64,000 nucleotides of DNA from positions 7,880 to 71,879 of the forward strand of contig CAZHFF010000001.1 in the NCBI GenBank assembly GCA_964531785.1, written 5' to 3'. A program made the position numbers and the translations under genes. Below are positions 7,455 to 63,149 of the stretch, in pieces. The notes beneath the pieces are model-generated. The model was not told the DNA's origin. It saw nothing but the letters and a program-made list of their open reading frames with translations, and did not search any database. This DNA comes from an uncultured Candidatus Saccharibacteria bacterium. Its GTDB lineage: Bacteria; Patescibacteriota; Minisyncoccia; Phycocordibacterales; UBA12088. Each line of letters begins with the position of its first letter. Position 1 is the first letter of the stretch.

Positions 7455-7460
7455 TATACT
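7455..7460 (+). promoter_or_regulatory. -10-like hexamer TATACT 6 nt upstream of ATG 7467 (leaderless-type promoter)
   Basis: Sequence gtagGGTATACTatcgccATG. No Shine-Dalgarno. Confidence 0.5.
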
Positions 7461-7466
7461 ATCGCC

Positions 7467-19774: not shown

Positions 19775-20794
19775 CTAAAAGGTTAGGATCGGGCTGATAA
19801 TGCCGAATACCACCAGTGCACCGTAGAGGTTCGTGAGCGCAAAGAGGATCACGACGAGACCTGCGGTCTTGAAAAAGACGCCGCGGTATCTGCCTTTCGC
19901 CAGGTCGAGCGAGCCGAACGAGAGGAGTGCTAAGACCGGCAGCGTGCCGAGCGCGAACACGAGCATGGTGAGTGCGCCGGTCACCGCGCTTCCAGAGGAC
20001 AAGCTCATGACCTGCATCGACTGGGTAAAGCCGCAGGGCAGGAAGAACGTGAAGGCGCCGAGGAGTATCGGGGCAACACTCCCCGCACGCTCTGCCACAG
20101 CTGTGAGCCTTTCGGAGATGCTGCGAGGCAGCGTCCATGCGCGTACCTTTTTCGTGATATCAAGAAGGTGTATACCGAGGATGAGCATGACAAAGCTCGC
20201 GAGCGCACCTAAGACCGCGCTCCCATAGACCCCGATCTGCATGACCTCGCCGAGCGCACCGAGCAATCCTCCAAGCACGAAGAAGCCGGCCAAACGACCT
20301 GCATGAAAGAGGATCTGGGGTCGTGCGCCTGCATTGCTCTGCGCGTAGGTCGCACTGACCGAGAGTACGAGGCCCCCAACTACCGCAAGACAGGTCGAGA
20401 CAGAAGCGACGAGGCCGACCACGAGCGCGGTCGTGAGGGTTGCTTCGCTCGATCCGATGAGGGAGGTTATGCCGGCTCTGTGAAGGAGCACAAAGCCAAA
20501 CACAAGCAGAACGACGACCGGTAGTGCTGTGAGCCACTCGCTCCAGTTCGTCTGCGCAAGCGGAGGTGTCGCATGTACGGTATACCCGTGTGTCGAGATA
20601 AGGCCGGTCAACCGAGCACTGAGCGACTCCGCATCTACGTGGCGCTCTGTTGTAAGGGTGATCGTCTCGCTTGTGAGGGAAACGGAGACACTGCTTACGT
20701 CAGGCTCTTTTTGAAGCGTGGCCTCGATCAGGTGCTTACAGGCGCTACAGTGCGTGCCGGTAACGTAGAGGGTGTGCGTGCGGGTCTCGGTCAT
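19775..20794 (-). CDS. HMA (heavy-metal-associated) domain fused to a DsbD/CcdA/TauE-like polytopic membrane domain
   Basis: LYVTGTHCSACKHLIEATL (HMA CxxC), then ~7 TM segments with FFLPCGFTQSMQ. ATGA start/stop overlap with copA at 20791-20794. Confidence 0.8.
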   Translation of the reverse strand: MTETRTHTLYVTGTHCSACKHLIEATLQKEPDVSSVSVSLTSETITLTTERHVDAESLSARLTGLISTHGYTVHATPPLAQTNWSEWLTALPVVVLLVFGFVLLHRAGITSLIGSSEATLTTALVVGLVASVSTCLAVVGGLVLSVSATYAQSNAGARPQILFHAGRLAGFFVLGGLLGALGEVMQIGVYGSAVLGALASFVMLILGIHLLDITKKVRAWTLPRSISERLTAVAERAGSVAPILLGAFTFFLPCGFTQSMQVMSLSSGSAVTGALTMLVFALGTLPVLALLSFGSLDLAKGRYRGVFFKTAGLVVILFALTNLYGALVVFGIISPILTF

Positions 20795-23016: not shown

Positions 23017-23104
23017 TTGATGCACGTTTTACTGATGCACCTTCAGTATCTCCTCATGGGTCATTCCTAATGACTTCGGTGCCTGTTATTGTACTAAGCG
23101 TACA

Positions 23105-23329
23105 CTACTCCGCTCTAAACGCATACCCGTGTTGGGAGAGTTGCTTCGTGAACAGCTCCGCAAGTTGAGGAGCATTTTCGTCTCGGTCAGCCTTAACGAC
23201 CGCCTTTTGGAGTGCCTCGTCCACACTGACCGATCTAACGCCGGGCAGCTCTGAAAGTTCTTCCGTGATCAGGATACTGCACGACGTGCAGTGCATGCCG
23301 GTAACGGTAAAAGTGTGTGTTTGAGCCAT
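23105..23329 (-). CDS. copZ: CopZ-like copper chaperone (single HMA domain)
   Basis: MAQTHTFTVTGMHCTSCSILITEEL.., 74 aa. Confidence 0.85.
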   Translation of the reverse strand: MAQTHTFTVTGMHCTSCSILITEELSELPGVRSVSVDEALQKAVVKADRDENAPQLAELFTKQLSQHGYAFRAE

Positions 23330-23366
23330 GGTGGTTATGTAAGAGTTAGTGTTTTTATACAGTTAC

Positions 23367-25679: not shown

Positions 25680-25690
25680 AGAGTCTATGC

Positions 25691-26248
25691 TTATCCATTA
25701 AACCAATCATTCCTCCAAGACCTTAGCGTCACCAGGTCTCGTGCAAGCGCTTCTTCGAGTGCACGTGCATCTTGCCTCACCTTTGCTCGAACAGGACTTG
25801 AAGCAACACTCTGCACAATGGCAAGTGTTGCTTCTTGGTGCGCTATGAGGGCGTCCAGATACCGTACGTCGAACGCACCATCCTCGTCTGTGCCAAGATC
25901 GGGTATCTTCGGCTCACGTACTTGCTGAGTATCATCGAACCAGTCACGTTTGAGCACAAGAATATCGGCCACGCGTTGTGTTTCGGCGCGTATGATGTTC
26001 GCTGCAAACTCATGCAATTCTGGTCGATGCGTTTCCCGTACCTGTCGAGCGAGCCCGATTGCTATTTTGCTCTGGGTGATCTGTGCGTCAAAATATGCCG
26101 CCTCGACCTGCTCGGAGGCCGATTCGTTCACGTTCATACTTTTTTCTGGTCCGGCATATGCGGGTGCGAGATACGCCCCAACACCGATGCCGATAGTCAA
26201 GGTCATGATGCTAATGGCGAGGGACAGTGGGAGTGAGAGCTTGATCAT
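25691..26248 (-). CDS. DUF305 family protein (four-helix, copper-resistance associated), secreted
   Basis: Signal/TM at the N-terminus. Duplicated helical motif ..FDAQITQSKIAIGLA.. and ..DVRYLDALIAHQEATLAIVQ.., as in DUF305. Confidence 0.7.
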   Translation of the reverse strand: MIKLSLPLSLAISIMTLTIGIGVGAYLAPAYAGPEKSMNVNESASEQVEAAYFDAQITQSKIAIGLARQVRETHRPELHEFAANIIRAETQRVADILVLKRDWFDDTQQVREPKIPDLGTDEDGAFDVRYLDALIAHQEATLAIVQSVASSPVRAKVRQDARALEEALARDLVTLRSWRNDWFNG

Positions 26249-26366
26249 ACGTACGTAGTTTATAAGTTCTTAATTACCGTTTTTATCGTGCAACAGCTTA
26301 TGTCTGATGCTTGTAACGGACCATGTCGCAAGCTTAGACCAAGTATGTTGGGTTCGTGGACAATGG

Positions 26367-27779
26367 TTACGGAATCACCGTAAATGTGCCCGAGTACATA
26401 CCCATGGAGCAGGTGAACCTGATCGTGCCGATCTTGGTCGGTGTGAACTCGATCACATTTTCCCCCTCTTTGAGCCCTTGTCTAATACCGTAGGTAGGCA
26501 TTGCAATGAACGCGGCGCAGCTGTATTGCGTCTTCGAGGTTATGATCCACCTGACCGGTACGTTGTTCTTGATCGTAAACTGGTTCGGTCTATACCCACC
26601 TCCTAGTTGGTCCATACGGACGATCTGTACGCCGTTCTGCTGCTCTGCAACAGCAGTATCATTATTTCCTTTTCGGCTTTGGGAAGTGCCAGTCCTGCCG
26701 GTGTCGTCACCAGCTTCACTCGATCCGAAACTGAAGATCGCTGGCGCCGGAATACCGGCGAGTGTGAGTCCGGTCTGAAGGTTGAACAGGCCGAATACGA
26801 TGACCGCAAGGCCGGTAAATTTGAAGAAGTAGCGTGCAAACTGACCTTTGACGAATGACGTAAGACCGCCGATACCGAGAAGTCCAGGAGTTGTACCCAG
26901 CGCAAATAGGCCCATGATGAGTGCTCCCTCGGTGAAGCTTCCCGTCGACACCGCGTAGATCTGCATTGCTTGGGTGAAGCCGCAAGGAAGGAAGAAGGTC
27001 GCCGCTCCGGTAAGAATGGCTCCCCGATGGCTATATTCTTTCCGATCATCCTCTGCGCGTATCAGTCGCATACTCAATGACTTAGGCAGGAGCAGAGCCG
27101 CTTTGCTTATCCCTGGCATAATGCCAATGAGTCGAATACCAAGGATGAACATTACCACGCCAGCAGCGGCCACAAAGAGGCCCATACCCGAGCCGGAAAG
27201 ATTTATCGCTCCACCAACAGTGCCGATAACGCCACCGAGGACTGTATAGGAGACCAAGCGACCCAGGTTAAAGAATAGGTTCGGACGAAACTTCTGCATG
27301 ATGGTCGCCTCAGGGTGTAGTTTGGCGTGCTGTGCGGTTATGCCAAGGACAAGTCCGCCCACGAGCGCCATACAGGTGGAGACACCGGCAACGAGACCTA
27401 TAACGAATACCAGTGAGAGTGCAGGTGTTGAGCCAAAGTCGACTGAGCGGTCCATAAGGCCAGACCCAGCGAGGAAAAGCCAGAGCATGATAAGGATGCT
27501 CGCTGCGATCAAAAGCTCAAAGTAATCTGCAGGGTCTTTCGAGAAGAAGGTACGCCCATGTCGTGTTTCCGCTACCGCGTAGCCTGCTTCTCTCACAGCT
27601 TCCGCAAGTTCCTCATGCGATGGAGGTGTTTTGCTATACAGTACTTTTGCTAGGCCAGTAGCATGGTTGACCGAGACCTTGAGAACGCCTTCAACTTTGC
27701 TTATTTTTTTCTCCAGTAGTATTTCGCAGGATTTGCAGTGCATTCCGGAGATCGGAACGGTAAGTGTTCTTTGTTCCAT
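26367..27779 (-). CDS. Tripartite fusion: HMA domain - DsbD/CcdA/TauE-like membrane domain - C-terminal cupredoxin-like domain
   Basis: LTVPISGMHCKSCEILLEKK (HMA), FFLPCGFTQAMQ (membrane core), C-terminal ..GYRPNQFTIKNNVPVRWIITSKTQYSCAAFIAMPTYG..RFTCSMGMYSGTFTVIP. Confidence 0.8.
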   Translation of the reverse strand: MEQRTLTVPISGMHCKSCEILLEKKISKVEGVLKVSVNHATGLAKVLYSKTPPSHEELAEAVREAGYAVAETRHGRTFFSKDPADYFELLIAASILIMLWLFLAGSGLMDRSVDFGSTPALSLVFVIGLVAGVSTCMALVGGLVLGITAQHAKLHPEATIMQKFRPNLFFNLGRLVSYTVLGGVIGTVGGAINLSGSGMGLFVAAAGVVMFILGIRLIGIMPGISKAALLLPKSLSMRLIRAEDDRKEYSHRGAILTGAATFFLPCGFTQAMQIYAVSTGSFTEGALIMGLFALGTTPGLLGIGGLTSFVKGQFARYFFKFTGLAVIVFGLFNLQTGLTLAGIPAPAIFSFGSSEAGDDTGRTGTSQSRKGNNDTAVAEQQNGVQIVRMDQLGGGYRPNQFTIKNNVPVRWIITSKTQYSCAAFIAMPTYGIRQGLKEGENVIEFTPTKIGTIRFTCSMGMYSGTFTVIP

Positions 27780-46305: not shown

Positions 46306-46359
46306 CGGTGGATAGCGTACCGCTTAGCCGGTCCTGAGGTGGTATAGTACGGATACCGT

Positions 46360-49300
46360 ATGCGCGAACGACCAGTTCCAGTACCCGTTGAGGAGGCCCA
46401 GCCTACGCGCGGCTTGGTCTTGAGCGAGATACCGACGAGCGGTGAGCTTGAAGCGCTCACAAGTAGTGAGCTGCTCGCACGCATGCGCTCGCTCGAGGAT
46501 TGGAAGGGGGCCGCGCACATGCTCATCACCACAGAGGAGCTCGACGCAGATCCGAAGCAGCGGTCGGCGGTGGAGACCCGAGTAGCCGAACTCGTGAGCG
46601 AGCTGGTGAAGCAGGGCAAGCTCTATCCGGGACAGGAGTACGTGATTGATCCTCTGACCGGGGTCGGAGCGTGGCTTCCGCACCAAGCGTCAAGCGAGGC
46701 ACAAGGTGTGGAAACGACCGATCTGTCGCCGAGTCCATCGAAAGGGGTACCAAAGCCGGAGCGTGTCATATCGACCGAGCATAAGCTGCTCGAGGTGCTC
46801 GGCTTCAAGAAGCAACAGAAAGACCTCGTGAACGCGTCGAACGGCGAACTGATCGCGGCGGCGCAGGAGCTCGCGCACCTCGACCCGAACATATTCAAGG
46901 TGGACGTCGGCGCGTTTCCGCACGACCTCGATGCGCTCACGGTCGAAGACCTGACCTCGCGGCCGGATGATGCGCCGGATGTCATGCGTCGCAAGATCGC
47001 GCTCAGAAAGGAGCTCGTCGATTGGATAGCTGCTGAAACGACCCACTTCGAGCAGCGTGAAGTATCTGGAGCACCCGAGTTGTCGCGCTCGGGAGCGCCC
47101 GCTGCGGTGCCACCGACCACCGAAGCCGGGGTGCCGCCCGTGCCGCCTAAGGCGGAAGGTAGTACCGAGCCGCATGAACCGAGCGAGACCGAACGTGCCG
47201 CGTACCAGGCGCGGGTTCGTGACGAGCTGGATCACCTGCCTCGGGAAGAGCTCGGTTCACCTGAGCAGCTCGCAGCGAACGAGCTCTTGGGTCGCTTGGA
47301 ACGTCAGACTGATCCTAAACGTATTGATGACCTGCGTGTCGGTATCGACAAGAACTTGAAACGTATGCGCGAGCGCATCAGCGCGCGCCGGGGTACGAGC
47401 ACTACGGGCGAGTCCGGCACAGCCGTAGTGCCGGAACCGGTCGCGACCGAAGACCTGGAAACGGTCGCGCGTTCGCTCGAGTCGCTCACAGACGTAGATG
47501 AGATCCGTACCGGACGCAAGCGCCTCGTGCTCATGTATGCCGACCTCGTCCTCAATGCGCTCCATACGCACAGTACGACCGATGCGCACTTCGCAGAACC
47601 AATGGGGATAACGCTCATGCGCAAGATCGTCGAGAAGCTCCGGAGCACGACCGAAATGACCGAGCAGACCGATCGGCTGGCCGAACTCATTTTGGAAGCG
47701 ATAGAGCGCAATCATGAAGAGATCACTCGGTATGGCATAGTGTTGCCGCCGTTGCCGAAACTCCCCGCGATACCTGAGACACCAACCGAACCCATGTCCG
47801 ATGCGGCCGCGGAAGGAGTGGTCGAAGAACCGCCAGCAGCGGAGCCGACCGCAGAACCAGCGGCACCCCGGCTGGCGGCAGAGACTGCGGGTGAGACGAA
47901 GCCAGACGTGAGCGAAACGTTCGAGACGGGCCTCGAGCAGGCGCTCGAACATAACGCGGCACTCCCCAATGCGGACACCTCCTCGGCTGACCGTTCGGTG
48001 AACATAACCTACAACATCGGTGATGGTGCCCAGGTCGGTGTCGTTGCCCATGAGGGTGTACACAACAGCATGATAGGTATAGCCGCGCAGCCGGGTACGG
48101 CGGCGGGTGTACCTGCCGAACGGACCGAACCATCGGTGCCGGAGCGGGTGCAGCAGACTTCGTCGGCGCCTGAGGCAGTGACCGAAAAACAGGATGCTCC
48201 AACAGCTCTGCCAGCGCATGAGCCGACCCCCGTAGCAGAACCGGCACCGGAGACGCCCACACAACCCAAGGCAGTACCTGCGGGTGCACCGGAGACAGAT
48301 GCCGCAGAAACCGCACCGACCCCGCCGGAGACAGCGTCCGATCGGACGGGCGAGGAAGCAGCTGCTCTCGCTGCACCAGCAGACATGGTGCCTAGCGAAG
48401 CCGCCGGAGAATCAGTATCGTCGCCTGGTGTGACTGCACCAGAAGCCACCCCGGCTGAGCCGACACCTGAAGCAGCTCCATCAGATCCGTACCAGCAGAC
48501 ACGTGCCGAGTACCACGAGTTCACGAGCCGGCTCCGTGAGGCGGGGAAGGAGTATCAGGCGGCGCTTATGGCGCTTACGACCCGGCGCAACGAGCTAGGT
48601 TTGCTGAAGCGGGCAAAAAATGCAAAGGAGCTCGTTCTGCTTGCGAAGGTTAGAGATGAGAAAGAGGCGGCGTATGACGCCCTCCTCGGCGAGGTTCGCA
48701 CGAAACGCACCGAGCGGGTCACAAAGATCGTCGAGGCCGTGAAAGCGCGACGCGAACGACGAGGCGATCTGGAAGAGGCGGTCTCGCGAGATCCCGCGGC
48801 GCATATCCTTGCGTGGCACGAGGCGATCCTCTACGCGCAGACTATGCGTCACGCAGCGACCATAGAGCAGCTGCAAGGCGTTGGGGCCCAAAAGGAACAT
48901 GGTCCGCTGGTACGGCGCATGCAAGCGGTCGCCGAGTACTACCGTAAGATACCTCTTGCGAACAAGCTCACCCTCCGCGTCGTTGGGGCGGGTGCGATCG
49001 GTGCGGGAGCAGCGCTCCTTGCCGCACCGACAGCAGCGGCTGCGGCGTTCTGGGCAGGTGGCGCAGCGGCCACCCGCGCAGGCGTCGGTTTCCTGACCGG
49101 TATGGGGGCAGCCGTCGGTACGAAGAAAGGACTCGATTCCGTTATCGAGAAGCGGGCCGCGCGAAAGACCGGGGAGCTCAAGAAGGATTTTGCCGGCAAG
49201 CACCTTGCAGATACACGGAAACAGTTGCTCGCGATACGCAAGCAAGAGCGCCAGCTGAAAACCGGTGCAACGGTGGTCGCGGGAGCAGCAGCGTTCGGCG

Positions 49301-51669
49301 CGGGCGCGACCGCAGGTCAAGCGGCTGCGCATGTCGTTGATGGCGGATCGCTCGCAGACGCCGAGGCATATACGGGCGTGCCCCGTGCGCTCGGCAACCT
49401 CAAGCGCGCGGCTGATTGGGTCGATGAGAAGGTCGGCCTCAGGGGTGTTCCCGAGACACCTGATGTGGCAGAGTCTGAGGTAGCCGGAATACCGGAAACA
49501 GAAAAGACGGCCTCGGTCAGTGAACCAAGCGTGCAGCCTGAGGACGCACCGATCAGCGAGCCGGCACGTTCGCCTGCGCCCGAAGTGGGAGAACAGGTAG
49601 AGCCGGATGCACAGCGTGCGGAACAGCCCGAGGCGAACCCGATCGAGTCGCGCGGCGTTTTCCGGCCGGAGGGTACGCTTGAAGTGCGGCTCGAGGATGA
49701 TTCCATCATGCTCCGTGATCCGAGCGATCCCCGTGTTGTCTACACCTGCTTCGACTCAGGTCGATGCTACCGCACCACACTGAACGATCCTACCGCGCCG
49801 GGTTACCGCAATAGCGACGGACCCCAGGATTCACCTGAGATCGAGAAGCACGAGCTCCCCCCGGCTATGCGTGAGCGGGTCATGCGGTGGGATCGTGAGC
49901 ACGACCTGCAAGCGGCGCTCGATCGCGAAGTACGGGAAGGAGCTATCCCGCACGCGGCCCCAAGAAGCGAGGAGGGGCGCGTCTGGTTGAACGACGAGCA
50001 AATGTTTAGTGAGGTAGAGCCGCAGGTCGGGCAACGCACGCCTCTAGCGCAGCCTGAAACGGCGCTACAGGTCGGTGCGATTGATACAACCTATGCACAG
50101 GGCGAGAGTCCAGTGAGCGTCATTCAGGATATGGTGCGAAAGCTCGACCCATCGCTCACCGAAGAGCAGGTCGGACGCGTTGCGTACCGACTGTTCCTTG
50201 AGATCCAGCATGACGGTGCGGCACAAGAGGCATTCAATGTACACGAGGGGAAGTGGAACCTGGTACGACCGGGAAGTACGGCCCGATACAGATTCGACGA
50301 GGCCCTTCTTGAGCGAGAGCTGCAGTCGGTGCGCGGAACACCGGCGACCGAACCTGCTCCGATCGAAGCACGTACAGAGGAACCTGTTGTCCTGCGCGAG
50401 AAGCAGGAACCGGCGCGTGTGGCCGCTCCGGAGCCTGTGCGTTACCGGCCGGGTGACTTCCCACGAACGCCGGAGCTTTTCAATAATCTTGAGAACCTGG
50501 GGCAGGTACCGGACCACCTGGGCGCAGGGACTCGGCCGGCGCTTGAGTACCTGTTCTCGTCCGGTGCGTGGAGCGCCGAGGTGACCGCACTCAGGCCGCG
50601 CATCCTCAGTGCATGGGGTGCGCTCAGCCAGGTGCCCGTAGCCAAGCTCATCGACGAAACCCCTGGGGCAGAGTTCGAGCTTGCGGGCGGCTCGGTACGG
50701 CTCACGCCCGAGACGGAGCAGCTGCTCGTCGTCCTTTCACACCAGCTTGAGCGAATGCCAGGCGCACGCGGGTTGCTCGAAGTGCACGCAGCTGCGGGCG
50801 GGACGTTCGGCGCGCTCTTACAGGACATCGCGCGTGAACAGAGCGGTGTCGCTGCACCTCCACAGCAGGTCGCGCCTAGTATACGCACACCCGCATACAA
50901 GCCGGGCGGCCGCATGGGCCTGGTGCTGCGCGACCCAGGTCGAGTAGCGGTGGAGATGATCGCCGATAACCGGCAGCAGGCAGAGATCGACCGTGCACGA
51001 GCCATTGCCGCATCTCGGGGGTACGAGCATGGGCGAGGCGGGTACGGCCGTCATACGCCGCTCGTGCCGGGGAGGGCAGGGGTCGGCGTGTATGGTGAGG
51101 CGGTCGGGGAGGTCCCGATCTCCCGGAACGGTTCGCTCCGGATAGGTGGGCGCGCGGGTGCTGAGGTCACCGTACAGGGCGGGCCGACGCTGCGTGCACC
51201 TGGAGCAGCAACGCCCGAAGCACTCGCGCAGGTCGAAGGCGACCTCCTGCGTGATCTGCGTTCAGGCTGGTTCAACGCCCCGAACTTGACCGACGCTGAG
51301 ATCACCCGGTTCCGCACTATCGATACTATTAGCGCTGAAGAGCTCGCGCTCTATACACCCAAGGCACAGCAAGCACTCATTGATGCTGGGCTCGCGGAGC
51401 AAGGAGAAGCACTGAGCCGGTACATGCGCAGCCTCATGCGCCAGGGGATCGATCGCCTCGAGGCGAACGCGGCAGCAGGGGTGAGGCGAGCGCCGGGGTA
51501 TAAGGTGGTGGGCGGACCCGACGCGAGCGCGCTCAGTCCGTTCGAGTATGCGCACCATATGAAGGGTATCAATGCGCGCGACCTGCCCGTCGGCGCAGCA
51601 CGCAACCGTCCTCTTAGGCAGCAGGGTTTCGGTATTCGCCGGGGCAGACCGTATAACTTAAATCAGTAG
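46360..51669 (+). CDS. 1,769-aa orphan protein: no signal peptide, Pro/Glu/Ala/Thr-rich spacers, coiled-coil segments, central Gly/Ala-rich hydrophobic hairpins
   Basis: Single ORF. TATAGT hexamer (46343-46348) lies 11 nt upstream. Hydrophobic G/A-rich segments are encoded at ~48960-49340 (LRVVGAGAIGAGAALLAAPTAAAAAFWAGGAA..GFLTGMGAAVG; ATVVAGAAAFGAGATAG). I recognise no catalytic motifs. Confidence 0.75.
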   Translation: MRERPVPVPVEEAQPTRGLVLSEIPTSGELEALTSSELLARMRSLEDWKGAAHMLITTEELDADPKQRSAVETRVAELVSELVKQGKLYPGQEYVIDPLTGVGAWLPHQASSEAQGVETTDLSPSPSKGVPKPERVISTEHKLLEVLGFKKQQKDLVNASNGELIAAAQELAHLDPNIFKVDVGAFPHDLDALTVEDLTSRPDDAPDVMRRKIALRKELVDWIAAETTHFEQREVSGAPELSRSGAPAAVPPTTEAGVPPVPPKAEGSTEPHEPSETERAAYQARVRDELDHLPREELGSPEQLAANELLGRLERQTDPKRIDDLRVGIDKNLKRMRERISARRGTSTTGESGTAVVPEPVATEDLETVARSLESLTDVDEIRTGRKRLVLMYADLVLNALHTHSTTDAHFAEPMGITLMRKIVEKLRSTTEMTEQTDRLAELILEAIERNHEEITRYGIVLPPLPKLPAIPETPTEPMSDAAAEGVVEEPPAAEPTAEPAAPRLAAETAGETKPDVSETFETGLEQALEHNAALPNADTSSADRSVNITYNIGDGAQVGVVAHEGVHNSMIGIAAQPGTAAGVPAERTEPSVPERVQQTSSAPEAVTEKQDAPTALPAHEPTPVAEPAPETPTQPKAVPAGAPETDAAETAPTPPETASDRTGEEAAALAAPADMVPSEAAGESVSSPGVTAPEATPAEPTPEAAPSDPYQQTRAEYHEFTSRLREAGKEYQAALMALTTRRNELGLLKRAKNAKELVLLAKVRDEKEAAYDALLGEVRTKRTERVTKIVEAVKARRERRGDLEEAVSRDPAAHILAWHEAILYAQTMRHAATIEQLQGVGAQKEHGPLVRRMQAVAEYYRKIPLANKLTLRVVGAGAIGAGAALLAAPTAAAAAFWAGGAAATRAGVGFLTGMGAAVGTKKGLDSVIEKRAARKTGELKKDFAGKHLADTRKQLLAIRKQERQLKTGATVVAGAAAFGAGATAGQAAAHVVDGGSLADAEAYTGVPRALGNLKRAADWVDEKVGLRGVPETPDVAESEVAGIPETEKTASVSEPSVQPEDAPISEPARSPAPEVGEQVEPDAQRAEQPEANPIESRGVFRPEGTLEVRLEDDSIMLRDPSDPRVVYTCFDSGRCYRTTLNDPTAPGYRNSDGPQDSPEIEKHELPPAMRERVMRWDREHDLQAALDREVREGAIPHAAPRSEEGRVWLNDEQMFSEVEPQVGQRTPLAQPETALQVGAIDTTYAQGESPVSVIQDMVRKLDPSLTEEQVGRVAYRLFLEIQHDGAAQEAFNVHEGKWNLVRPGSTARYRFDEALLERELQSVRGTPATEPAPIEARTEEPVVLREKQEPARVAAPEPVRYRPGDFPRTPELFNNLENLGQVPDHLGAGTRPALEYLFSSGAWSAEVTALRPRILSAWGALSQVPVAKLIDETPGAEFELAGGSVRLTPETEQLLVVLSHQLERMPGARGLLEVHAAAGGTFGALLQDIAREQSGVAAPPQQVAPSIRTPAYKPGGRMGLVLRDPGRVAVEMIADNRQQAEIDRARAIAASRGYEHGRGGYGRHTPLVPGRAGVGVYGEAVGEVPISRNGSLRIGGRAGAEVTVQGGPTLRAPGAATPEALAQVEGDLLRDLRSGWFNAPNLTDAEITRFRTIDTISAEELALYTPKAQQALIDAGLAEQGEALSRYMRSLMRQGIDRLEANAAAGVRRAPGYKVVGGPDASALSPFEYAHHMKGINARDLPVGAARNRPLRQQGFGIRRGRPYNLNQ

Positions 51670-51672
51670 TAC

Positions 51673-52026
51673 ATGGACACCGACCAACAGAACGAACAGG
51701 AAGCGTTCATTGACCTTGGGGGCGTGCCCGAGTCTGAGCAGCATGAGCTCCTTGAGGAGCTCGGCAGTGTCCTGTTCGAAGGTGTCATGGAGCGCGTGTT
51801 TGCACAGCTCGACGAGGAGCAGGGGAAAGCGTTGACCCTGCTCATTGAGGTGTCGAACCAGGACCCGGAGAGTGAAGAGAAGCGCACGCTCGTTGCACAG
51901 TACCTTGACGAGCACGTGCCGGACCTCGAGCAGCTCGTCATCGAGGAGGCACAGCTCCTCCATGAGGCTCAGGAAACCGTACTTGCTGAGCTTGGAGTAG
52001 CAGAGGAGAAGCCGGGCACCAGCTAG
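51673..52026 (+). CDS. Small (117 aa) highly acidic helical protein, translationally coupled to the 1,769-aa gene
   Basis: Starts 3 nt after the upstream stop. MDTDQQNEQEAFIDLGGVPESEQHELLEELGSVLFEGVMERVFAQLDEEQ... A 21-bp-stem hairpin follows. Confidence 0.55.
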   Translation: MDTDQQNEQEAFIDLGGVPESEQHELLEELGSVLFEGVMERVFAQLDEEQGKALTLLIEVSNQDPESEEKRTLVAQYLDEHVPDLEQLVIEEAQLLHEAQETVLAELGVAEEKPGTS

Positions 52027-52078: not shown

Positions 52079-52140
52079 GTAGCGCAGAGCAGCAGCTACG
52101 CGCTTGGACGAGCACAGGGTTGTGTAGTATCGTAGCTTGC

Positions 52141-55417: not shown

Positions 55418-55460
55418 GCGCTATCCACTGCTCCTGCTCTACACGTAGCGCGCTCTGCGC

Positions 55461-55466
55461 TACAAT
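55461..55466 (+). promoter_or_regulatory. -10-like hexamer TACAAT 6 nt upstream of ATG 55473 (leaderless-type)
   Basis: Sequence ctgcgcTACAATagtgctATG. Confidence 0.5.
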
Positions 55467-55472
55467 AGTGCT

Positions 55473-56705
55473 ATGCGATGGTACCTGTCGCGGGTGCGTT
55501 CCGGTGCGGCTGTTTTGGCTGTAGGCGTGTTGACCATGCTCGTTGCCGCGCCAGCCATTGTCGTATGGGCAGAGGATGACCATGGCACCGAGAGTCAGCT
55601 TCCGCCCGGGCACACCGGTTCAGGGCCGTTCACAGTGACCCCTATCGTGGCGAACGAGAAGGCGAAGCCGCGGGACATCATCAAGAAAGAGCTCCTGATC
55701 GTCAACACGTCGAACGAACGAAAGAGCCTGCGGGCGACCGTCGAGAACCTGGACCCGAACTCGGGTGCGCAGGCGATCGTTTCGCCCGGGGTCGCCGATC
55801 TGTCACAATCGCTCGCGAACTGGATCGAGATCACCCGTGGGGTGATCACACTTGCTCCGGGCGAGAGCCGCAAGGTGCCGTACCTGATCCATGTTAACCT
55901 CTCGGCAAAACCGGGAAGCTACTTTGCGCGCATCAGCTTTACCGATGGGACGATAGGTGTGCCGGGGAGCGGACAGAGCCTGCCTGACGGGACGAGCCTC
56001 GTGCTCAACCTTGAGGTGCAGGATGATGCCCGGGAACGGCTCCAGCTCGGGAGCTTCACCGCAGAAAGAAGCCTTATCTTGGGAGGGGAGGTAACCTTCG
56101 CGTACCTCCTCGAGAACGTCGGCAACCGTAAGCTAGAGCCGCGCGGTTCGATACGGATCTTCAACCGCCGCGGCGAAGAGGTCGGGAGCGTGCCCTTAAA
56201 CGCTGATGGCAAAGAGATCACCCCCGAGAATCGCGAGCAGCTCGCCGCGGCATGGACGGCTTCCGGCAGGTTCGGTAAGTACAAAGCGTTCCTCGACCTC
56301 GAGTACGGTGATAAGCAGCTCGCAAGCGTTCAAGATTCAGTCTACTTCTGGGTCTTTCCGTGGAAAGAGATCATGGCGACCCTGGTCGGTGTATTCGTCC
56401 TTGCGGTTCTGGGCACCTACGTGATCCACCTGCGCACCGTCGCCCGCCCTATCAGGGTGCACCAACCAGCGTATGCTGCCGAGGGTACGCGCGAGCATCC
56501 TCGCTCACGCGGTATCCATATGCCTTCCCAGGATACCCATCCGCGTCCCGAGCCTCAGCAACCCGCACCCGTCGCTCTGGCTCGCGTCACCGTTCCCCCG
56601 CTCGAGCGGTCCGGCCCCGAGGTGCGGGGTGCCACGATCGCGCTCACCCGAACCCCGCGTGCATCGACCCAAGGCAATGTCGTACAACTTCCCGCACGCA
56701 GGTAG
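55473..56705 (+). CDS. Surface-locus paralog 1: signal peptide, two beta-rich ectodomains, TM, Pro/Arg-rich tail (DUF916/DUF3324-like, tentative)
   Basis: ANWIEITRGVITLAPGESRKVPYLIHVNLSAKPGSYFARISF. Second half: ..FAYLLENVGNRKLEPRGSIRIFNRRGEEVGSVPLN... TM: IMATLVGVFVLAVLGTYVI. Confidence 0.7.
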   Translation: MRWYLSRVRSGAAVLAVGVLTMLVAAPAIVVWAEDDHGTESQLPPGHTGSGPFTVTPIVANEKAKPRDIIKKELLIVNTSNERKSLRATVENLDPNSGAQAIVSPGVADLSQSLANWIEITRGVITLAPGESRKVPYLIHVNLSAKPGSYFARISFTDGTIGVPGSGQSLPDGTSLVLNLEVQDDARERLQLGSFTAERSLILGGEVTFAYLLENVGNRKLEPRGSIRIFNRRGEEVGSVPLNADGKEITPENREQLAAAWTASGRFGKYKAFLDLEYGDKQLASVQDSVYFWVFPWKEIMATLVGVFVLAVLGTYVIHLRTVARPIRVHQPAYAAEGTREHPRSRGIHMPSQDTHPRPEPQQPAPVALARVTVPPLERSGPEVRGATIALTRTPRASTQGNVVQLPARR

Positions 56706-56718
56706 TTCGCTCGTACAC

Positions 56719-58056
56719 ATGCGACGCATGCTCCGTGCCCGTGCGTCGGTGTCCTGGTACCCTATAGGCGTCGTGATGTTGTTTGGCGCAAGTTTCGCAC
56801 TGCTACCTCTGCCTGCTGTCGCACAGGAGAGCCTATCGCTTACGGTTACGCCGCCCCTCTTTCAGGTGAGCCTCAATCCGGGCGAGATCTGGAGCACCAC
56901 CGTCAGGGTCGTGAACGGCGGTGTCGTGCCCGTCATGCTCTATGCGGATCCGGTGCCGTTTTCGCCTCTGGGTGAGGCCGGCCGGCCGCGGTTCGACCTC
57001 ACGGCCCGAGCAGGTGAGGGTTCGGACGATCGGGAGCTGCTCGCCGATTGGATCGAGACGCTCGAAGCACCGCTTGAGGTGCGCGGTGAGCAAACGGTCG
57101 AGGTGCCGATCACCATACGGGTACCTGCGGACGCCTCGCCGGGTGGCCACTACGCAGCGGTCCTCATCGGGAACCGGGCGCCTGAAGCGCAAGGCGAGAG
57201 CACGGTGAGCGTCGCGAGCTCGATAGCGACCCTGTTCCTCGTGACCGTTGCGGGCGACATCGACGAGCGGGCGAGGATACGCGATTTCGTGAGCGACGAA
57301 CGGCTCTACGAGAAGCCGGAGGCGCGGTTCTCGCTCCGGTTCGAGAACCAGGGCAACGTCCACCTCATGCCCCAGGGCGTGATCACGATCTACAACATGT
57401 TCGGCAAAGAACGGGGCAGGGTCACGTTCAATGAGGGCGAGCACTTCGGCAATGTCTTGCCGGGCAGTATTCGCAAGTTCTCCTTTAGCTGGAAAGCCGA
57501 TTCGGGGGTATGGGACATCGGGCGCTACCGGGCGGAAGCGGTCCTTGGCTATGGCCGGGAAGCCAAGCGGTTCACCCAGGCGACGACATATTTTTATGTG
57601 CTGCCGATTCTGCCGCTTGCCGGTGCGCTCGGCGGAACGCTTTGCTTCGTACTCTTGCTCCTCTGGGGGGTTAGGGCGTACATTCGCCGGGCACTCCTCC
57701 TTGAGACCGCGCACCTCGTTGACCGGCCGGTCGCAGAGCCCGTGTCCGTACCGATCGTGCGAGCGCATATCGCGCTCGAGCCCCGTACGCTCCTGCGACC
57801 GATCTCGGAAGGTATGGTCGACCTCAGGCGTATCGCACGGCCGACGAGTATGCCCGAAGCATCGAACGTGCCGACAGAGCCCGTGTTCGGTACGATCGGT
57901 TTTCTCACAAAGTACCGCTACTTCTTTCTGTTCATCGCGCTTGCCGGTCTCGGATGGGTCCTCATATCCGCGCTCCTTACCGACGTGCTCACCTATGAGC
58001 GATCGTTCGAGGTTTCGGTCGACGAGGCAGCATCTGAGGTGCACGACCTTGACTGA
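56719..58056 (+). CDS. Surface-locus paralog 2 (DUF916/DUF3324-like, tentative) with a second C-terminal TM
   Basis: Signal VVMLFGASFALLPLPAVAQE. ADWIETLEAPLEVRGEQTVEVPITIRVPADASPGGHYAAVLIG. FSLRFENQGNVHLMPQGVITIYNMFGKERGRVTFN. TMs: LAGALGGTLCFVLLLLWGV and YFFLFIALAGLGWVLISALL. The track start 56473 overlaps paralog 1. Confidence 0.7.
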   Translation: MRRMLRARASVSWYPIGVVMLFGASFALLPLPAVAQESLSLTVTPPLFQVSLNPGEIWSTTVRVVNGGVVPVMLYADPVPFSPLGEAGRPRFDLTARAGEGSDDRELLADWIETLEAPLEVRGEQTVEVPITIRVPADASPGGHYAAVLIGNRAPEAQGESTVSVASSIATLFLVTVAGDIDERARIRDFVSDERLYEKPEARFSLRFENQGNVHLMPQGVITIYNMFGKERGRVTFNEGEHFGNVLPGSIRKFSFSWKADSGVWDIGRYRAEAVLGYGREAKRFTQATTYFYVLPILPLAGALGGTLCFVLLLLWGVRAYIRRALLLETAHLVDRPVAEPVSVPIVRAHIALEPRTLLRPISEGMVDLRRIARPTSMPEASNVPTEPVFGTIGFLTKYRYFFLFIALAGLGWVLISALLTDVLTYERSFEVSVDEAASEVHDLD

Positions 58057-58241: not shown

Positions 58242-59438
58242 ATGAATTCGTTAGCACATGTACTTACTTTGCCGGTGCGATCCATAGCGATCGTCACCGC
58301 GCTCGCACTTCTTGCCTGGAGCATGGGCCTGCCGGCCTGGATACACACCGCACAGGCAGCAACCCTCGAGGAGGTGAGCGACACGCTCTCGGTCGGACCT
58401 TCCGCGACCGAAGGTGCGTCCTCGCCCGGTGCCAACGCCGCGCACCGCATCCGCTTCACCACACCGAGCGGTATGGTGGGAGGCCAGAATCTCCGCGTCA
58501 CGTTCGATCCGGAGAATAGCCTGTTCGACCTTACAAATGTTGCCGTTGGGGATATCTACATCGTAGCGGGCGCTACTAAGGTGGACGCTGTCGGTAGCTG
58601 TACCGGTGGTGATACAAGCGAGATATACCCGACCATGAACCCTGACAGCATTGATTTCACCGTCTGTTCGGGTGACACGATCGCGTCGACGACCGACTTC
58701 ATCATCGATGTCGGCACCTCGACGGGCGGTAACCTGATCAATAACCCGGCAACTCCCGGTTCGTACGTGATCCAGATCGGCGGCGACCCGGCAAGCACCG
58801 CGGCCGACTCTGGCGATACCCGCGTGGTGATCCTCAACGAGGTCACCGTGACCGCGGCGGTCAATACGATCTTCACCTTCAGCGTGAACCCGGTCATTGA
58901 GGGTGTCACGGTAAACGGCGACGCCGTGCAAACCTCGACCACGACGACCGCGACCGCTATACCGTTCGGCGTGCTGTCACCGAATACGGCAAAGCTTGCA
59001 GCACAGGAGCTTCGCGTCGACACGAATGCCCTCAACGGCTTCAGCGTCACGGTCCAGGCGGACCAGACCCTGACCGCAGGGAATGGCGCAACCATCGATG
59101 AGTTTACGGACGGTACAGCCGACGCGACCCCGACCGAATGGGCTGGTCCGACCGGCACGATGGGTGCGGACGACACCTATGGCCACTGGGGACTCACCAC
59201 CGATGATACTGCGCTCTCGAGCCTCCTCGATTTCTTCCCGGACCCGGAGCCGCGCTATGTCGGCAACTTCATCGACAACCCGGTCGAGGTCTTCTATCAC
59301 AATACTGCGGTCGAACAAACTGCGGGAACCGGTGTGGGCTCGACCACGGTCGCGTACAAGATCGAGATCATGGAGCTGCAGGAAGCGGCAAAGGATTATA
59401 CTGCGACGCTCACCTACATCGCGACCCCGGTCTTCTAA
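58242..59438 (+). CDS. Secreted 398-aa protein. Its C-terminal ~190 aa is homologous to the C-terminus of the giant protein (WxL-like, tentative). Its N-terminal domain is related to that of the 61275..63149 product.
   Basis: Signal ..IAIVTALALLAWSMGLPAWIHTAQA. C-terminal IFTFSVNP..ATAIPFGVL..LRVDTNALNGFSVTV..YGHWG..VAYKIEI..YTATLTYIATPVF parallels LSFTVTG..AFSIPFGNL..LSVSTNATRGYQVFL..FGYHAG..IIYRIRV..YESRMGYVIVPVF. Confidence 0.7.
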   Translation: MNSLAHVLTLPVRSIAIVTALALLAWSMGLPAWIHTAQAATLEEVSDTLSVGPSATEGASSPGANAAHRIRFTTPSGMVGGQNLRVTFDPENSLFDLTNVAVGDIYIVAGATKVDAVGSCTGGDTSEIYPTMNPDSIDFTVCSGDTIASTTDFIIDVGTSTGGNLINNPATPGSYVIQIGGDPASTAADSGDTRVVILNEVTVTAAVNTIFTFSVNPVIEGVTVNGDAVQTSTTTTATAIPFGVLSPNTAKLAAQELRVDTNALNGFSVTVQADQTLTAGNGATIDEFTDGTADATPTEWAGPTGTMGADDTYGHWGLTTDDTALSSLLDFFPDPEPRYVGNFIDNPVEVFYHNTAVEQTAGTGVGSTTVAYKIEIMELQEAAKDYTATLTYIATPVF

Positions 59439-59586: not shown

Positions 59587-60660
59587 ATGTTCCAAACGGT
59601 TTTTCGCGTTTCGCGTCCGCTCGTACTCATTGCCCTGGTATTGTTTGCGATACTTAGCTCGGCATCGGAGCTTTTCGCTCAAGGCTTGGGAGTCACCATT
59701 GCACCTGCAACGATCGATGAGCGGGTCGACCCGGGTGGCAGTCTGACAGGCGCGCTCACGGTGACCAATGTGAGCAATGAGCGCGAGACTTACGTGATCG
59801 GCACACGTAACGTGACCGGCATGGAAGCGAAAGGGACGCCGCTCTTCGAGCGTGGCCCGAGCGCAGACCCGCTCGCGTCGGCGAGCTGGATCAAGCTCGA
59901 GGTTACCATGCTTGAGCTGGGACCCGGCGAGAGCGGACAGGTGCCCTACCGGATCGAGGTACCCGTGGATGCGGAGCCGGGAGGACACTTTGCGGCGTTC
60001 TTTATTACCCGCGAGGCTGATACGGTGCTCGAGTCCGGTGCTGGGGTCGGGTTCCACGTCGCATCGCTCGCGAACCTGCGGGTGAGCGGCGAGGTGGTCG
60101 AAGATATCGTGTTCAAGGAGTTCTCGACCGGCAAACTGCTCTACACGAAGCCACCGGTCGACTTTTCGGTCCGGTTCGAGAATACCGGCAACGTACATGA
60201 ACGGCCCCAGGGCATCATTACGTTGACCGACCTCTTAGGGAACGAGGTGAGCCAGCTGCCGGTCAACGAGAACGCTGGGGCTATTCTGCCAAGGGCCGAG
60301 CGCCTGTTCGCAGAGGTGTGGGAGCATGAGGGGTTCCTCCTCGGTCGGTACCAGGCACGAGCAAGCGTCATGTTCGGCGATCGCGAGAAGAAGACGATCA
60401 CGCGGGAGACGACGTTCTGGGTCGTGCCACTGCGCGAGGTCGGCGTGGTGCTCGGTAGCATACTCGGCCTCGTCCTGCTCTTAGCGCTCGTGGTCCGCGC
60501 GTACGTACGGCGCATACTGAGGTCCGCTGGCGCTGACACGGCACGAACCAGTGCGGCACGCGCTCGGGCGAGCTTTGCGCAGAGGCTCTTACGGACTACG
60601 CTCTGGTTCGCTGCACTCGTTGCCCTCGGTGTGATAAGCCTCATCGTGTTCTTTGCCTAG
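59587..60660 (+). CDS. Surface-locus paralog 3 (DUF916/DUF3324-like, tentative) with two C-terminal TMs
   Basis: Signal LVLIALVLFAILSSASELFAQ. ASWIKLEVTMLELGPGESGQVPYRIEVPVDAEPGGHFAAFFIT. FSVRFENTGNVHERPQGIITLTDLLGNEVSQLPVN. TMs: VGVVLGSILGLVLLLALVV and LWFAALVALGVISLIVFF. Confidence 0.7.
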   Translation: MFQTVFRVSRPLVLIALVLFAILSSASELFAQGLGVTIAPATIDERVDPGGSLTGALTVTNVSNERETYVIGTRNVTGMEAKGTPLFERGPSADPLASASWIKLEVTMLELGPGESGQVPYRIEVPVDAEPGGHFAAFFITREADTVLESGAGVGFHVASLANLRVSGEVVEDIVFKEFSTGKLLYTKPPVDFSVRFENTGNVHERPQGIITLTDLLGNEVSQLPVNENAGAILPRAERLFAEVWEHEGFLLGRYQARASVMFGDREKKTITRETTFWVVPLREVGVVLGSILGLVLLLALVVRAYVRRILRSAGADTARTSAARARASFAQRLLRTTLWFAALVALGVISLIVFFA

Positions 60661-61115: not shown

Positions 61116-61274
61116 CAGAGACGTCCGTGCTTCGGTCTTCGCGGTGTGGTGGATAAGCCACGGCCCTAAGCCACGGGACGCGTTACAATAGCGCTACAGA
61201 CGTTCTGTGGCAGTGCGATCGTGCACGCACCACGCACGGCTTCGGTGGTGCCTGTACCACCGCTTCTTACGATC

Positions 61275-63149
61275 ATGAGTCCCCGCTTCACTCGTTCTGC
61301 TCCTCTCCTTTTCCTCTTCGTGATAGGTATGCTGCTCGGAATGGGGAGTCACGGTGCGGCGCAGACCACCTCGTACCTGTCGAACATTCGCAACCTGCTC
61401 TCCACGTCGGCACCGAATACGCCGACCGACCAGACGCTCACCTTCACGCTGGGCCAGTCGATACCGCCCAATGGCGCGATCGAGCTCATGTTCAACGAGG
61501 GTGGGTTCACCATACCCGCGCTCCTCAACTTCAGCGACGTCGATGTGGCGTTCGGGCCGCCGGGCGGTCCTTACACCGAGCGGCCGCTTTCCTCTGCACA
61601 GACCGCCGGTTCGGACCGGATCGTAGTGACATCGGGCACTGCTGGTAAGGTGCGCGTCGACCTCAATACCTCGGTCGGTATCGGGGCGGGGAACGAGGTG
61701 CGTATCAAGATCGGTCACCACGCGACGTTCGGTGCGTTCGGTGACCAGCGAATGGTGCTCGGCACGACGACCAAGTCCTACCCGGTGACGATCTACACCT
61801 ATGATGCGGCCGATGCCGAGCTCGAGTACGGGCGCACCATGATAGCTATCGTTGATCGGGTCGGCGTGGGTCCGGTCGACACCGACGATGTCACTCCGCC
61901 GGTCATACTGAGCGCCGAACCCTCAGGACTCCTCCAGGTCGGGACCCGTGCCGTGCAGCTCTGGGTCGTGACCGACGAGCGTTCCCGCTGTCGTTGGGCG
62001 ACCTCAAGCATCAGCTACGTGACGATGCCGTACCAGTTTACCTCGACGAGCACCTCAGGGCTGGCGTTCTGGAACTTCGGGATCTACAGCGGACTCGAGG
62101 ATGATACCGACTACGAAGTCTACGTCAGCTGTCGGGATTTCCGTGACAATACCATCGACCCACCCTACCTCCTTGAGTTCACGGTCGGTATCGAGCCCGG
62201 GAGTGCTTCCTCGACCGCGACTTCGACGGGAACCGGGACCGGCACAGGCACGTCGACCGCGACCTCAAGCTGCGTCGGCCCGGAGTGTACCGGCAGCGGC
62301 ACAGGGAGCGGCACCGGTGCATCGGGAAGCGGCAGCGGCTCGAGCCCTTCCGGGGGTGACGGATCGGGAAGCGGCAGCGGGAGCACGGGAACCGGGTCTG
62401 GCGCCGGTACGAAGCTCCCCCAGGCCTCTGTCCGTATCGACGGGTACGCGTACCCGGGCGCGACGGTCTCGATACTCCAGGACGGGGCACTCTCACGTGC
62501 GATCGTTGCCGGGAGCGATGCGCGCTTCGCGCACACGATCGACGGTCTGGATCGCGGTTCGTACTCGTATGGTGTCTTTGCGGTCGACACAGCGGGAGTG
62601 CGAAGCGCGACGTATGCGACGACGATGTGGCTCCGTTCGGCCAGCTTGAGCACCTTGTCGAACATCATGCTGCCGCCCACGCTCAGTGTTGCTGCGACGA
62701 AAGTAGACCCGGGTGTGCCGATCGCTGTGTCGGGCTTCAGTGCGCCCGGTGCGCTCGTAACGGTGTGGCTGCGTCCGCGACTTGCGGTGGTTACGACCGC
62801 TGACGTCGTGGCAACAACGACCGCAGCCGCAAGCGGCAGCTACACGCTCACGCTCGCAACGGACACGCTGCCTCAAGGAACCTACGAGCTTGTCGCACAG
62901 GGAAGCATCGCCGAGGCCGGTATAGAGAGCGATAAGAGCGCACGGAAGACGATCGGTGTCGGTGTCGATGTAGGACCCTCGGAAGGAGCAGGACAGGGGG
63001 ATCTCAACGGCGACGGGTTCGTGAACCTCGTTGACTTCTCGATCTTGCTCTTTAACTGGAACACCGCGAACGCGGTTGCAGACATCAACAAGGACGGAAT
63101 CGTGTCGCTTCCCGACTTCTCGATCATGTTGTTCTACTGGACCGGATAA
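61275..63149 (+). CDS. Secreted 624-aa surface protein: N-terminal domain related to the 58242 product, Ig-like middle domains, Gly/Ser/Thr linker, C-terminal dockerin-like module
   Basis: Signal MSPRFTRSAPLLFLFVIGMLLGMGSHGAAQ. Linker STGTGTGTGTS..GSGTGSGTGASGSGSGS..GSGSGSGSTGTGSGAG. C-terminus listed separately. Confidence 0.7.
   Translation: MSPRFTRSAPLLFLFVIGMLLGMGSHGAAQTTSYLSNIRNLLSTSAPNTPTDQTLTFTLGQSIPPNGAIELMFNEGGFTIPALLNFSDVDVAFGPPGGPYTERPLSSAQTAGSDRIVVTSGTAGKVRVDLNTSVGIGAGNEVRIKIGHHATFGAFGDQRMVLGTTTKSYPVTIYTYDAADAELEYGRTMIAIVDRVGVGPVDTDDVTPPVILSAEPSGLLQVGTRAVQLWVVTDERSRCRWATSSISYVTMPYQFTSTSTSGLAFWNFGIYSGLEDDTDYEVYVSCRDFRDNTIDPPYLLEFTVGIEPGSASSTATSTGTGTGTGTSTATSSCVGPECTGSGTGSGTGASGSGSGSSPSGGDGSGSGSGSTGTGSGAGTKLPQASVRIDGYAYPGATVSILQDGALSRAIVAGSDARFAHTIDGLDRGSYSYGVFAVDTAGVRSATYATTMWLRSASLSTLSNIMLPPTLSVAATKVDPGVPIAVSGFSAPGALVTVWLRPRLAVVTTADVVATTTAAASGSYTLTLATDTLPQGTYELVAQGSIAEAGIESDKSARKTIGVGVDVGPSEGAGQGDLNGDGFVNLVDFSILLFNWNTANAVADINKDGIVSLPDFSIMLFYWTG
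62991..63146 (+). other. Dockerin-like duplicated Ca-binding (EF-hand-like) module at the C-terminus of the 61275..63149 product
   Basis: GDLNGDGFVNLVDFSILLFNW and ADINKDGIVSLPDFSIMLFYW, two D-x-N-x-DG-x-[VI]-x(3)-D-F segments ~30 aa apart. Confidence 0.7.

Follow-up and report, generated by a model that had tools for sequence, protein, structure and literature searches.

A clade-specific family of large, putatively membrane-spanning proteins with a fixed DUF5663-type partner in a conserved surface-protein locus of Patescibacteria

The stretch of 64,000 nucleotides (nt) analysed here, referred to as the window, covers positions 7,880 to 71,879 of contig CAZHFF010000001.1 (assembly GCA_964531785.1), deposited as an uncultured Candidatus Saccharibacteria bacterium. 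On its forward strand it encodes a protein of 1,769 aa, hereafter the large protein, which belongs to an undescribed clade-specific family and whose gene is followed by that of a small acidic protein of the DUF5663 type. The order of its modules, the pairing with the small partner, the neighbourhood of a giant surface-protein gene and a charge asymmetry around three Gly/Ala-rich hydrophobic blocks are all conserved in this family. In the reading that we favour, at a probability of roughly 0.4, the large protein would serve as a scaffold across the envelope that is linked to the surface-protein locus around it. Patescibacteria are ultra-small, mostly uncultured and host-dependent, and the links of their envelope to the host and to their own cytoplasm are largely unknown; the large protein, which holds a fixed position in a conserved surface-protein locus, is a concrete target for topology, interaction and cryo-electron tomography work in this clade. 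The genomes of the Candidate Phyla Radiation (CPR) hold many large uncharacterised proteins, and large, lineage-specific CPR envelope proteins are a familiar kind.

A first-pass annotation of the window, made from the sequence alone, had flagged the large protein as an orphan of no recognisable family. The absence of a curated family was borne out, as no match was found in Pfam, NCBIfam, PHROG or PADLOC or among PDB sequences, and a word-indexed search of a 5.8-billion-protein set returned only the protein itself among the matches listed. The label of orphan, which stands as far as curated families go, otherwise had to be given up: an exhaustive HMMER search of 1.84 billion representatives, with aa 740-1769 as the query, found 31 proteins at E <= 1e-3 (22 of them at E <= 1e-10), and these form a real family. 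Nearly all are between 1,000 and 2,200 aa long, and the best match is 47% identical. Alignment and module hidden Markov models gave a common order of a variable N-terminal arm, module A, a linker, module B (one or two copies), module C (one or two copies) and a variable C-terminus. The only Pfam domain detected in the 31 members is FtsK_gamma (PF09397), present in two of them at 2e-10. These FtsK_gamma-type winged helices appear to sit in the N-terminal arms of P0004 (locus L002) and P0007 (L006), the latter apparently with several copies; the window protein itself contains neither FtsK_gamma nor a helix-turn-helix (HTH) domain.

The distribution of the family was assessed with the adjacent aminotransferase gene as the anchor for a scan of one genome per GTDB species. 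The closest anchored loci, at 72-75% aminotransferase identity, come from metagenome-assembled genomes labelled Parcubacteria group or Candidatus Paceibacterota (now placed by NCBI under the phylum Minisyncoccota), with one auto-labelled Saccharibacteria. Among the 80 anchored loci the large protein occurs only in L012 and the small protein only in L012 and the truncated L013, and unrelated genes lie upstream in the loci at <=64% aminotransferase identity. As the aminotransferases of the family-bearing genomes are 73-85% identical, these data confine the family to one narrow clade of Patescibacteria (Paceibacterota/Parcubacteria), and public data contain few examples of it. When metagenomes were scanned with the small protein, a single contig came up, which was already known. 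Neither the family nor its modules nor the fixed pairing with DUF5663 is described in the libraries and papers searched, and the literature search returned no paper on DUF5663, DUF7483 or DUF7361.

Every element that the first-pass annotation reported for the gene is found in the sequence where it had been placed, including the 1,769-aa open reading frame (ORF), the 54-nt gap that separates it from the preceding 3,345-aa ORF and the TATAGT within this gap (Table 1). Only in frame 1 do the codon usage of the 1,769-aa ORF and its GC content at the three codon positions (GC1/GC2/GC3) resemble those of the neighbouring genes. The protein is acidic and rich in disorder along its whole length. Its N-terminus, MRERPVPVPVEEAQ, is charged and the first hydrophobic peak is not reached before aa 870, in agreement with the earlier statement that a Sec signal peptide is lacking. 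The N-terminal arm, between 90 and 1,130 aa long in different members, is 11-12% identical to that of the closest relative, P0004. It carries the Pro/Glu/Ala/Thr spacer noted earlier, which extends over ~150 aa (about aa 561-712) and not ~180 aa. The coiled-coil peptide quoted in the annotation was located at aa 742-806 and its Gly/Ala-rich hydrophobic segments at aa 874-921 and 968-986, while self-BLAST gave no internal repeats anywhere in the protein, as had been claimed for the C-terminal part. Modules A and C are the two best-conserved parts, with identities to P0004 of 49% for module A, 36% for B, 55% for C and 36% for D, so that C is slightly higher against this closest relative. Module D is common only to the window protein, P0004, P0005 and P0007, and the pair of cysteines C1130 and C1136 is conserved in P0004 and P0005.

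Table 1. Coordinates of the large gene, its parts and the adjoining elements (positions in the window)
Feature	Position	Strand	Description
Upstream giant surface protein, 3,345 aa	36268..46305	+	N-terminal hydrophobic anchor, 7 DUF7483 repeats, C-terminal ...PVF
Extended -10-like element TGGTATAGT	46340..46348	+	ends 11 nt before ATG
Large protein, 1,769 aa	46360..51669	+	ATG start; member of undescribed clade-specific family
Variable N-terminal arm, aa 1-705	46360..48474	+	acidic, helical or disordered
Module A, aa 706-1000	48475..49359	+	long-helix bundle plus hydrophobic segments
Gly/Ala-rich hydrophobic blocks 1 and 2, aa 874-921	48979..49122	+	flank conserved Arg; putative membrane hairpin
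Basic amphipathic loop, aa 922-967	49123..49260	+	15 K/R vs 6 D/E; putatively cytoplasmic
Gly/Ala-rich hydrophobic block 3, aa 968-986	49261..49317	+	putative third span, acidic sequence after
Acidic Pro/Glu-rich linker, aa 1001-1100	49360..49659	+	
Cys-pair segment	49651..49794	+	C1130 and C1136, the only cysteines of the large protein
Module B, aa 1236-1330	50065..50349	+	compact β-α-α-α-β-α domain (predicted)
Module C, aa 1360-1480	50437..50799	+	compact, mostly helical (predicted); invariant D, G, WG, D, E residues
Module D, aa 1580-1769	51097..51666	+	Gly-rich region, basic tail
Acidic partner, 117 aa, divergent DUF5663	51673..52026	+	3 nt after large-gene stop
Perfect 21-bp hairpin, 3-nt loop	52034-52078	+	closes two-gene unit

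The membrane topology of the large protein was examined through the charges around the three hydrophobic blocks in 27 members of the family. The 20 aa before block 1 hold 156 K/R against 13 D/E, the loop before block 3 holds 389 K/R against 225 D/E, and the 20 aa after block 3 hold 17 K/R against 82 D/E. This conserved asymmetry gives a positive-inside pattern for a cytoplasmic N-terminus, a hairpin, a loop on the inside, a third span and a C-terminus on the outside (N-in/C-out). The FtsK_gamma domains, which are DNA-binding winged helices, lie only on the N-terminal side in the two relatives that have them, which fits a cytoplasmic N-terminal arm; the lack of a signal peptide also agrees with this topology. 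Judging from these sequence features, the large protein most likely spans the membrane, with ~870 aa in the cytoplasm, among them the presumably cytoplasmic N-terminal arm, and ~780 aa outside, where C1130 and C1136 would also lie. The first-pass annotation had proposed that the Gly/Ala-rich segments could form membrane hairpins; these segments are conserved and probably come into contact with the membrane.

Several observations weigh against this topology and have to be set beside it. The Gly/Ala-rich segments have Kyte-Doolittle peaks of 1.69 and 1.23. Their crude Hessa sums, +3.3 and +5.2 kcal/mol in the window protein and from +1.3 to +8.7 kcal/mol across the family, compare with a median of +0.2 kcal/mol (range -4.0 to +4.1) for the accepted transmembrane segments that other window proteins contain, and a helix buried in the soluble M17 peptidase reaches +4.1. 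The segments also fall below a predicted local distance difference test (pLDDT) score of 50 in the AlphaFold2 model, and marginal hydrophobicity together with low pLDDT means that constitutive insertion is not assured. The distribution of cysteines was tried as a topology marker and discarded as uninformative, since the family has about 1 Cys per 1,000 aa on either side. Finally, the support that module B might lend to an extracellular C-terminus is weak, as its similarity to LysM stays below threshold.

These same features could be explained by a wholly cytoplasmic, membrane-peripheral scaffold, in which the hydrophobic segments would act as monotopic or in-plane anchors or as glycine-zipper packing helices and the C-terminal domains would be intracellular. 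The marginal hydrophobicity, the missing signal peptide, the acidic and disorder-rich character throughout, the equal cysteine content of the two sides and a small partner that carries no export signal would all suit such a protein. Against it stand the sharp switch from basic to acidic sequence across block 3, conserved in 27 members, a cysteine pair in an otherwise cysteine-free protein, the weak LysM-like signature of module B and the position of the gene among exported surface proteins, and we consider it rather unlikely. The first-pass annotation had offered a cytoplasmic scaffold as one possibility; this would make up half of the probable layout, as the charge asymmetry favours an N-in/C-out protein that spans the membrane.

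The most economical model, in our view, is a resident envelope protein of N-in/C-out topology. In this trans-envelope model the large gene and the small DUF5663-type gene would be transcribed as a two-gene unit from their own promoter with little or no leader. A variable acidic N-terminal arm of about 870 aa would be cytoplasmic and end in a conserved long-helix bundle, two Gly/Ala-rich segments would form a membrane hairpin, a basic loop would return to the cytoplasmic face and a third Gly/Ala-rich segment would cross the membrane. About 780 aa would then lie outside, comprising the acidic Pro/Glu linker, the Cys-pair segment, domains B and C and the basic tail. Its function would reside in the conserved juxtamembrane bundle and in domains B and C on the outside, the long arms being poorly constrained, and the small acidic protein would be a cytoplasmic partner. 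The large protein could thereby serve as a scaffold or tether from the cell interior to a surface apparatus made up of the upstream giant DUF7483 protein and the downstream signal-peptide proteins.

An architectural analogy to this layout is offered by envelope linkers of the RodZ type. RodZ is a bitopic protein with a cytoplasmic HTH, a basic juxtamembrane region, a transmembrane segment, a Pro-rich linker and an extracytoplasmic domain. In the family described here, a cytoplasmic arm (with winged helices in some relatives) would likewise lead through a basic juxtamembrane stretch into the membrane, and a linker rich in Pro/Glu would then connect to the domains outside. The two differ in that there is no similarity of sequence or fold, that the large protein has three marginal segments instead of one transmembrane segment and is far bigger, and that the window protein lacks an HTH.

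Predicted structures were obtained for the conserved modules. Modules B and C, modelled together by AlphaFold2 from a 15-sequence alignment, reach a mean pLDDT of 79, with most blocks at 84-94, and appear as two compact α/β domains with a disordered linker between them. Foldseek found nothing better than E about 1 for them in PDB and BFVD, the highest-probability weak matches being a PVC baseplate chain and a phage LysM protein. Module A was modelled from an 18-sequence alignment with a predicted template modelling score of 0.63 and with long helices, on the N-terminal side as well as in the basic loop, at pLDDT 86-97, and Foldseek returned only generic long-helix proteins for it, the best PDB match having an E of 1.1. 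With neither a curated-library match nor a fold neighbour for the modules, the large protein consists of modules without any known family or fold. An apparent orphan is now a defined family with mapped modules, two of which are confidently modelled domains without relatives among solved structures.

The resemblance of module B to LysM (PF01476) deserves a separate comment. Some relatives begin the module with 'V-x-V-x-x-G-D-N-x-W-x-I', like the first 13-16 positions of LysM, two strands flank helices in the AlphaFold2 model, and the phage LysM protein is the highest-probability BFVD match, with a Foldseek probability of only 0.23. Module B, however, is roughly double LysM in size and contains one helix more. 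The window protein has no Pfam match to LysM, and Foldseek gave no significant LysM match. An identification as LysM was not retained, as the profile matches are limited to two relatives (E 0.013 and 0.12) and to those first 13-16 positions, the initial third of the profile; module B may be LysM-like, which is unproven.

The hairpin can also be read as that of a conditional membrane inserter, similar to translocators or α-pore-formers. The large protein would then be soluble at first, with the DUF5663 protein as a chaperone that masks the hairpin, and would be exported by a non-Sec route, an alternative that the first-pass annotation had raised, before insertion, possibly into the membrane of the episymbiont's host. 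All three segments are marginal in every member, as expected for initially soluble proteins, the hairpin is embedded in long helices, the signal peptide is absent and a small acidic partner is tightly coupled. When the module A profile was compared with PDB sequences, six non-significant matches were obtained (E 0.05-0.24), three of which overlap the hydrophobic hairpin: the type III secretion system (T3SS) translocator AopB, crystallised with its chaperone, MakA (also VCA0883) and NheL1. The last two are toxins of the ClyA family, and ClyA itself stands low in the Foldseek list of module A (rank 42, E 4.4). As non-significant matches, the three may merely reflect Gly/Ala-rich composition. Furthermore, no secretion-system genes were found among the annotated neighbours in the window and the related loci, the partner is not a class II chaperone of the tetratricopeptide repeat (TPR) type, and its gene comes after that of the putative client, whereas the chaperone gene precedes the client in typical T3SS loci. 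A resident membrane protein would agree better with the conserved positive-inside charges and the third segment, and the FtsK_gamma domains of the relatives suggest a cytoplasmic N-terminal arm. We therefore regard a conditional inserter as unlikely.

Compared directly, the large protein shares with the T3SS translocators (AopB-AcrH, to which the pair IpaB-IpgC is related) and with the ClyA-family toxins a marginal Gly/Ala-rich hairpin of ~50 aa within long helices, a small acidic partner gene and the lack of a Sec signal. It is five to eight times bigger (1,769 aa against PDB chains of 219-396 residues) and has an additional third segment, large flanking regions, a non-TPR partner and no T3SS genes; neither the PDB profile search nor Foldseek gave a significant similarity to either group. 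A more specific proposal would make it the first factor of the translocator or pore-forming type from an episymbiotic CPR bacterium, with a DUF5663-chaperoned hairpin that inserts into the host membrane at the contact site; this proposal seems to us improbable. Were it true, attachment would be provided by domains B and C on the outside together with the giant DUF7483 protein, and it would give a function to DUF5663 and point to a route for taking material from the host.

The small partner itself was characterised further. The 117-aa acidic protein reported by the first-pass annotation is present, with 31 D/E against 5 K/R and a pI of 4.05, and carries no export signal. The 3-nt spacing suggests translational coupling of the two genes. 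The window protein matches the DUF5663 model PF18908 with 15.0 bits (E 0.037) over profile positions 18-80 of 84, below the Pfam gathering cut-off of 23.7 bits. Its positional orthologues, which are 36-51% identical to it (21% for the most distant, that of L007), include strong matches in L010, L093 and L095 at E <= 1e-5, and four of eight small proteins match at E <= 0.1. Through this homology to proteins that pass the model, we assign it as a divergent DUF5663, consistent with the similar size and acidic sequence of the two. This replaces the label of 'chaperone-like' given to it before; the assignment names the partner and explains nothing of its role. All 14 family loci have the small partner, which was not found in any of the 78 other Paceibacterota loci collected through the aminotransferase anchor, and such a fixed partner ties the widespread DUF5663 family to a specific client.

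The gene order was compared among 11 members, namely the window protein, P0004, P0005, P0006, P0007, P0009, P0016, P0022, P0024, P0030 and P0033, in which the relatives are 20-47% identical to the window protein. A gene of 97-121 aa follows the large gene in all 11, with a spacing that ranges from a 4-nt overlap to 85 nt, so the coupling to a small acidic protein described for the window is kept throughout. A giant gene of 2,100-3,350 aa, usually with DUF7483, precedes the large gene wherever upstream sequence exists, the value of 2,100 aa being a lower bound from a contig-cut gene; the co-occurrence with the giant gene that the first-pass annotation had put forward as a check thus holds in every locus with enough upstream sequence. 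Downstream of the triad, the aminotransferase and M17 peptidase genes lead on to a row of genes for membrane proteins and proteins with signal peptides, in the relatives as in the window, and the earlier description of the large gene as embedded among surface-protein genes is supported by these neighbours. In L007 the aminotransferase/M17 pair is missing, and the giant, large and small genes are still contiguous with the surface-protein series, which argues that the triad and the surface series belong together. Against a functional link, it has to be considered that all members come from one narrow clade, with aminotransferases that are 73-85% identical, and that the conserved order may therefore partly reflect shared ancestry.

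The signals around the two genes were inspected for transcription. The TATAGT at 46343-46348 lies within the extended -10-like element TGGTATAGT, 11 nt upstream of the ATG of the large gene. L002 and L004 share TGGTATAGT with the window, at a distance of 11-14 nt upstream of the ATG, and in L006, L007 and L010 its place is taken by TAnnnT boxes. Many genes of the window have a TAnnnT -10-like box 6-12 nt before the ATG and no Shine-Dalgarno sequence (boxes at 7440-7466, 46340-46359, 52120-52140, 55445-55472 and others), and this organism may thus commonly make mRNAs that have little or no leader. A transcriptome study of Paceibacteria (PMC10936435) gave general background only. The position of TGGTATAGT just before the ATG implies a transcript with little or no leader, and we infer for the large gene a promoter of its own and a near-leaderless transcript, separate from that of the giant gene. 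At the other end, the 21-bp-stem hairpin that had been said to close the unit was confirmed, with an energy of -45.9 kcal/mol (z = -10.5 against shuffles) and no U-tract after it. Strong hairpins follow the small gene where intergenic space exists (window, L004, L008 and L009) and are absent where the genes abut. A scan of the window for consensus promoters and terminators showed no enrichment and missed both the TGGTATAGT box and the hairpin, as neither fits its rules. A mechanical start of the aminotransferase at GTG 52075 would overlap the right arm of the hairpin; its start is most likely ATG 52141, which gene callers chose, with which the relatives align and which is preceded by TAGTAT.

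In another reading, also put forward by the first-pass annotation, the large protein would be devoted to the giant DUF7483 protein as the factor that assembles or anchors it, for instance by holding or exporting it. The adjacency of the two genes in every locus with upstream sequence speaks for this, and so does a 915-aa family paralogue located between the giant gene and the family gene in L009. The promoter-like element of the large gene makes co-transcription with the giant gene less than obvious, however, and the giant protein has a strongly hydrophobic N-terminal anchor of its own. The rates of the two genes also differ, the giant protein being 70% identical between the window and L002 over 3,301 aa and the large protein 39% over 63% of its length; such different rates argue against tight co-evolution of a large interface with the giant protein. 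We consider a dedicated factor of this kind rather unlikely. The paralogue in L009 (6542-9289) matches module A at 4e-08 and module B at 9e-13 and has no module C.

The same pair of loci allowed the rates of the whole cluster to be compared. Identity between the window and L002 is 85% for the aminotransferase, 69% for the M17 peptidase, 63-65% for the downstream surface proteins and 51% for the small partner. The large protein is thus the fastest-evolving gene product of the cluster, with its conservation concentrated in modules A-D. A component that is exposed to hosts or phages would be expected to evolve fast. The giant protein, at its 70% identity, is well conserved for a surface protein.

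An origin from a prophage or mobile element, for instance as a tape-measure-like protein, or a spurious or decaying ORF was also considered, and we rejected both as very improbable. Some tape-measure proteins have long helices together with hydrophobic Gly-rich segments, which the long helices and Gly/Ala-rich segments of the large protein resemble; the giant neighbour matches phage tail-fibre and virion PHROGs through its repeats, and the large gene diverges very fast. The large protein has no PHROG match, no tblastn match in 50,697 phage records and no relatives in IMG/VR, however, and its neighbours are housekeeping genes in a conserved chromosomal order. The coding signal is clean, and the ORF and three modules are maintained across 11 divergent genomes. 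An anti-phage defence system was likewise discarded, as the large, small, giant and propeller proteins have no PADLOC match.

The surface genes further downstream show some features of their own. The giant protein and a 398-aa protein (58242-59438) both end in ...(I/V)x(T/V)PVF. The products of 55473-56705 and 59587-60660 have a signal peptide and a 'TVTNxSNE'-type motif, with a C-terminal transmembrane segment in at least the second. This set recalls the WxL/DUF916 (csc-type) clusters of Firmicutes, and no Pfam match supports the likeness. The + strand ORFs 55473-56705 and 56473-58056 overlap by 233 nt in different frames; the relatives have two adjacent genes there, of about 404-438 aa and about 414-479 aa, so the second probably starts downstream of 56473. 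At 61221-63149 a 642-aa protein with a C-terminal type I dockerin is encoded, and the syntenic cluster of L007 has a cohesin-domain protein (23070-23192) beside HSP20, which hints at a cohesin-dockerin assembly on the surface of this CPR clade.

No tRNA or Rfam elements were found in the 64-kb window. Upstream of the giant gene, at 19775-27779, two heavy-metal P-type ATPases are encoded in tandem, each of them together with an HMA-DsbD_2 fusion protein. The GC content is 0.51-0.53 across 24-30 kb, compared with about 0.60 elsewhere in the window, and the P-type ATPase region may be an acquired metal-resistance island.

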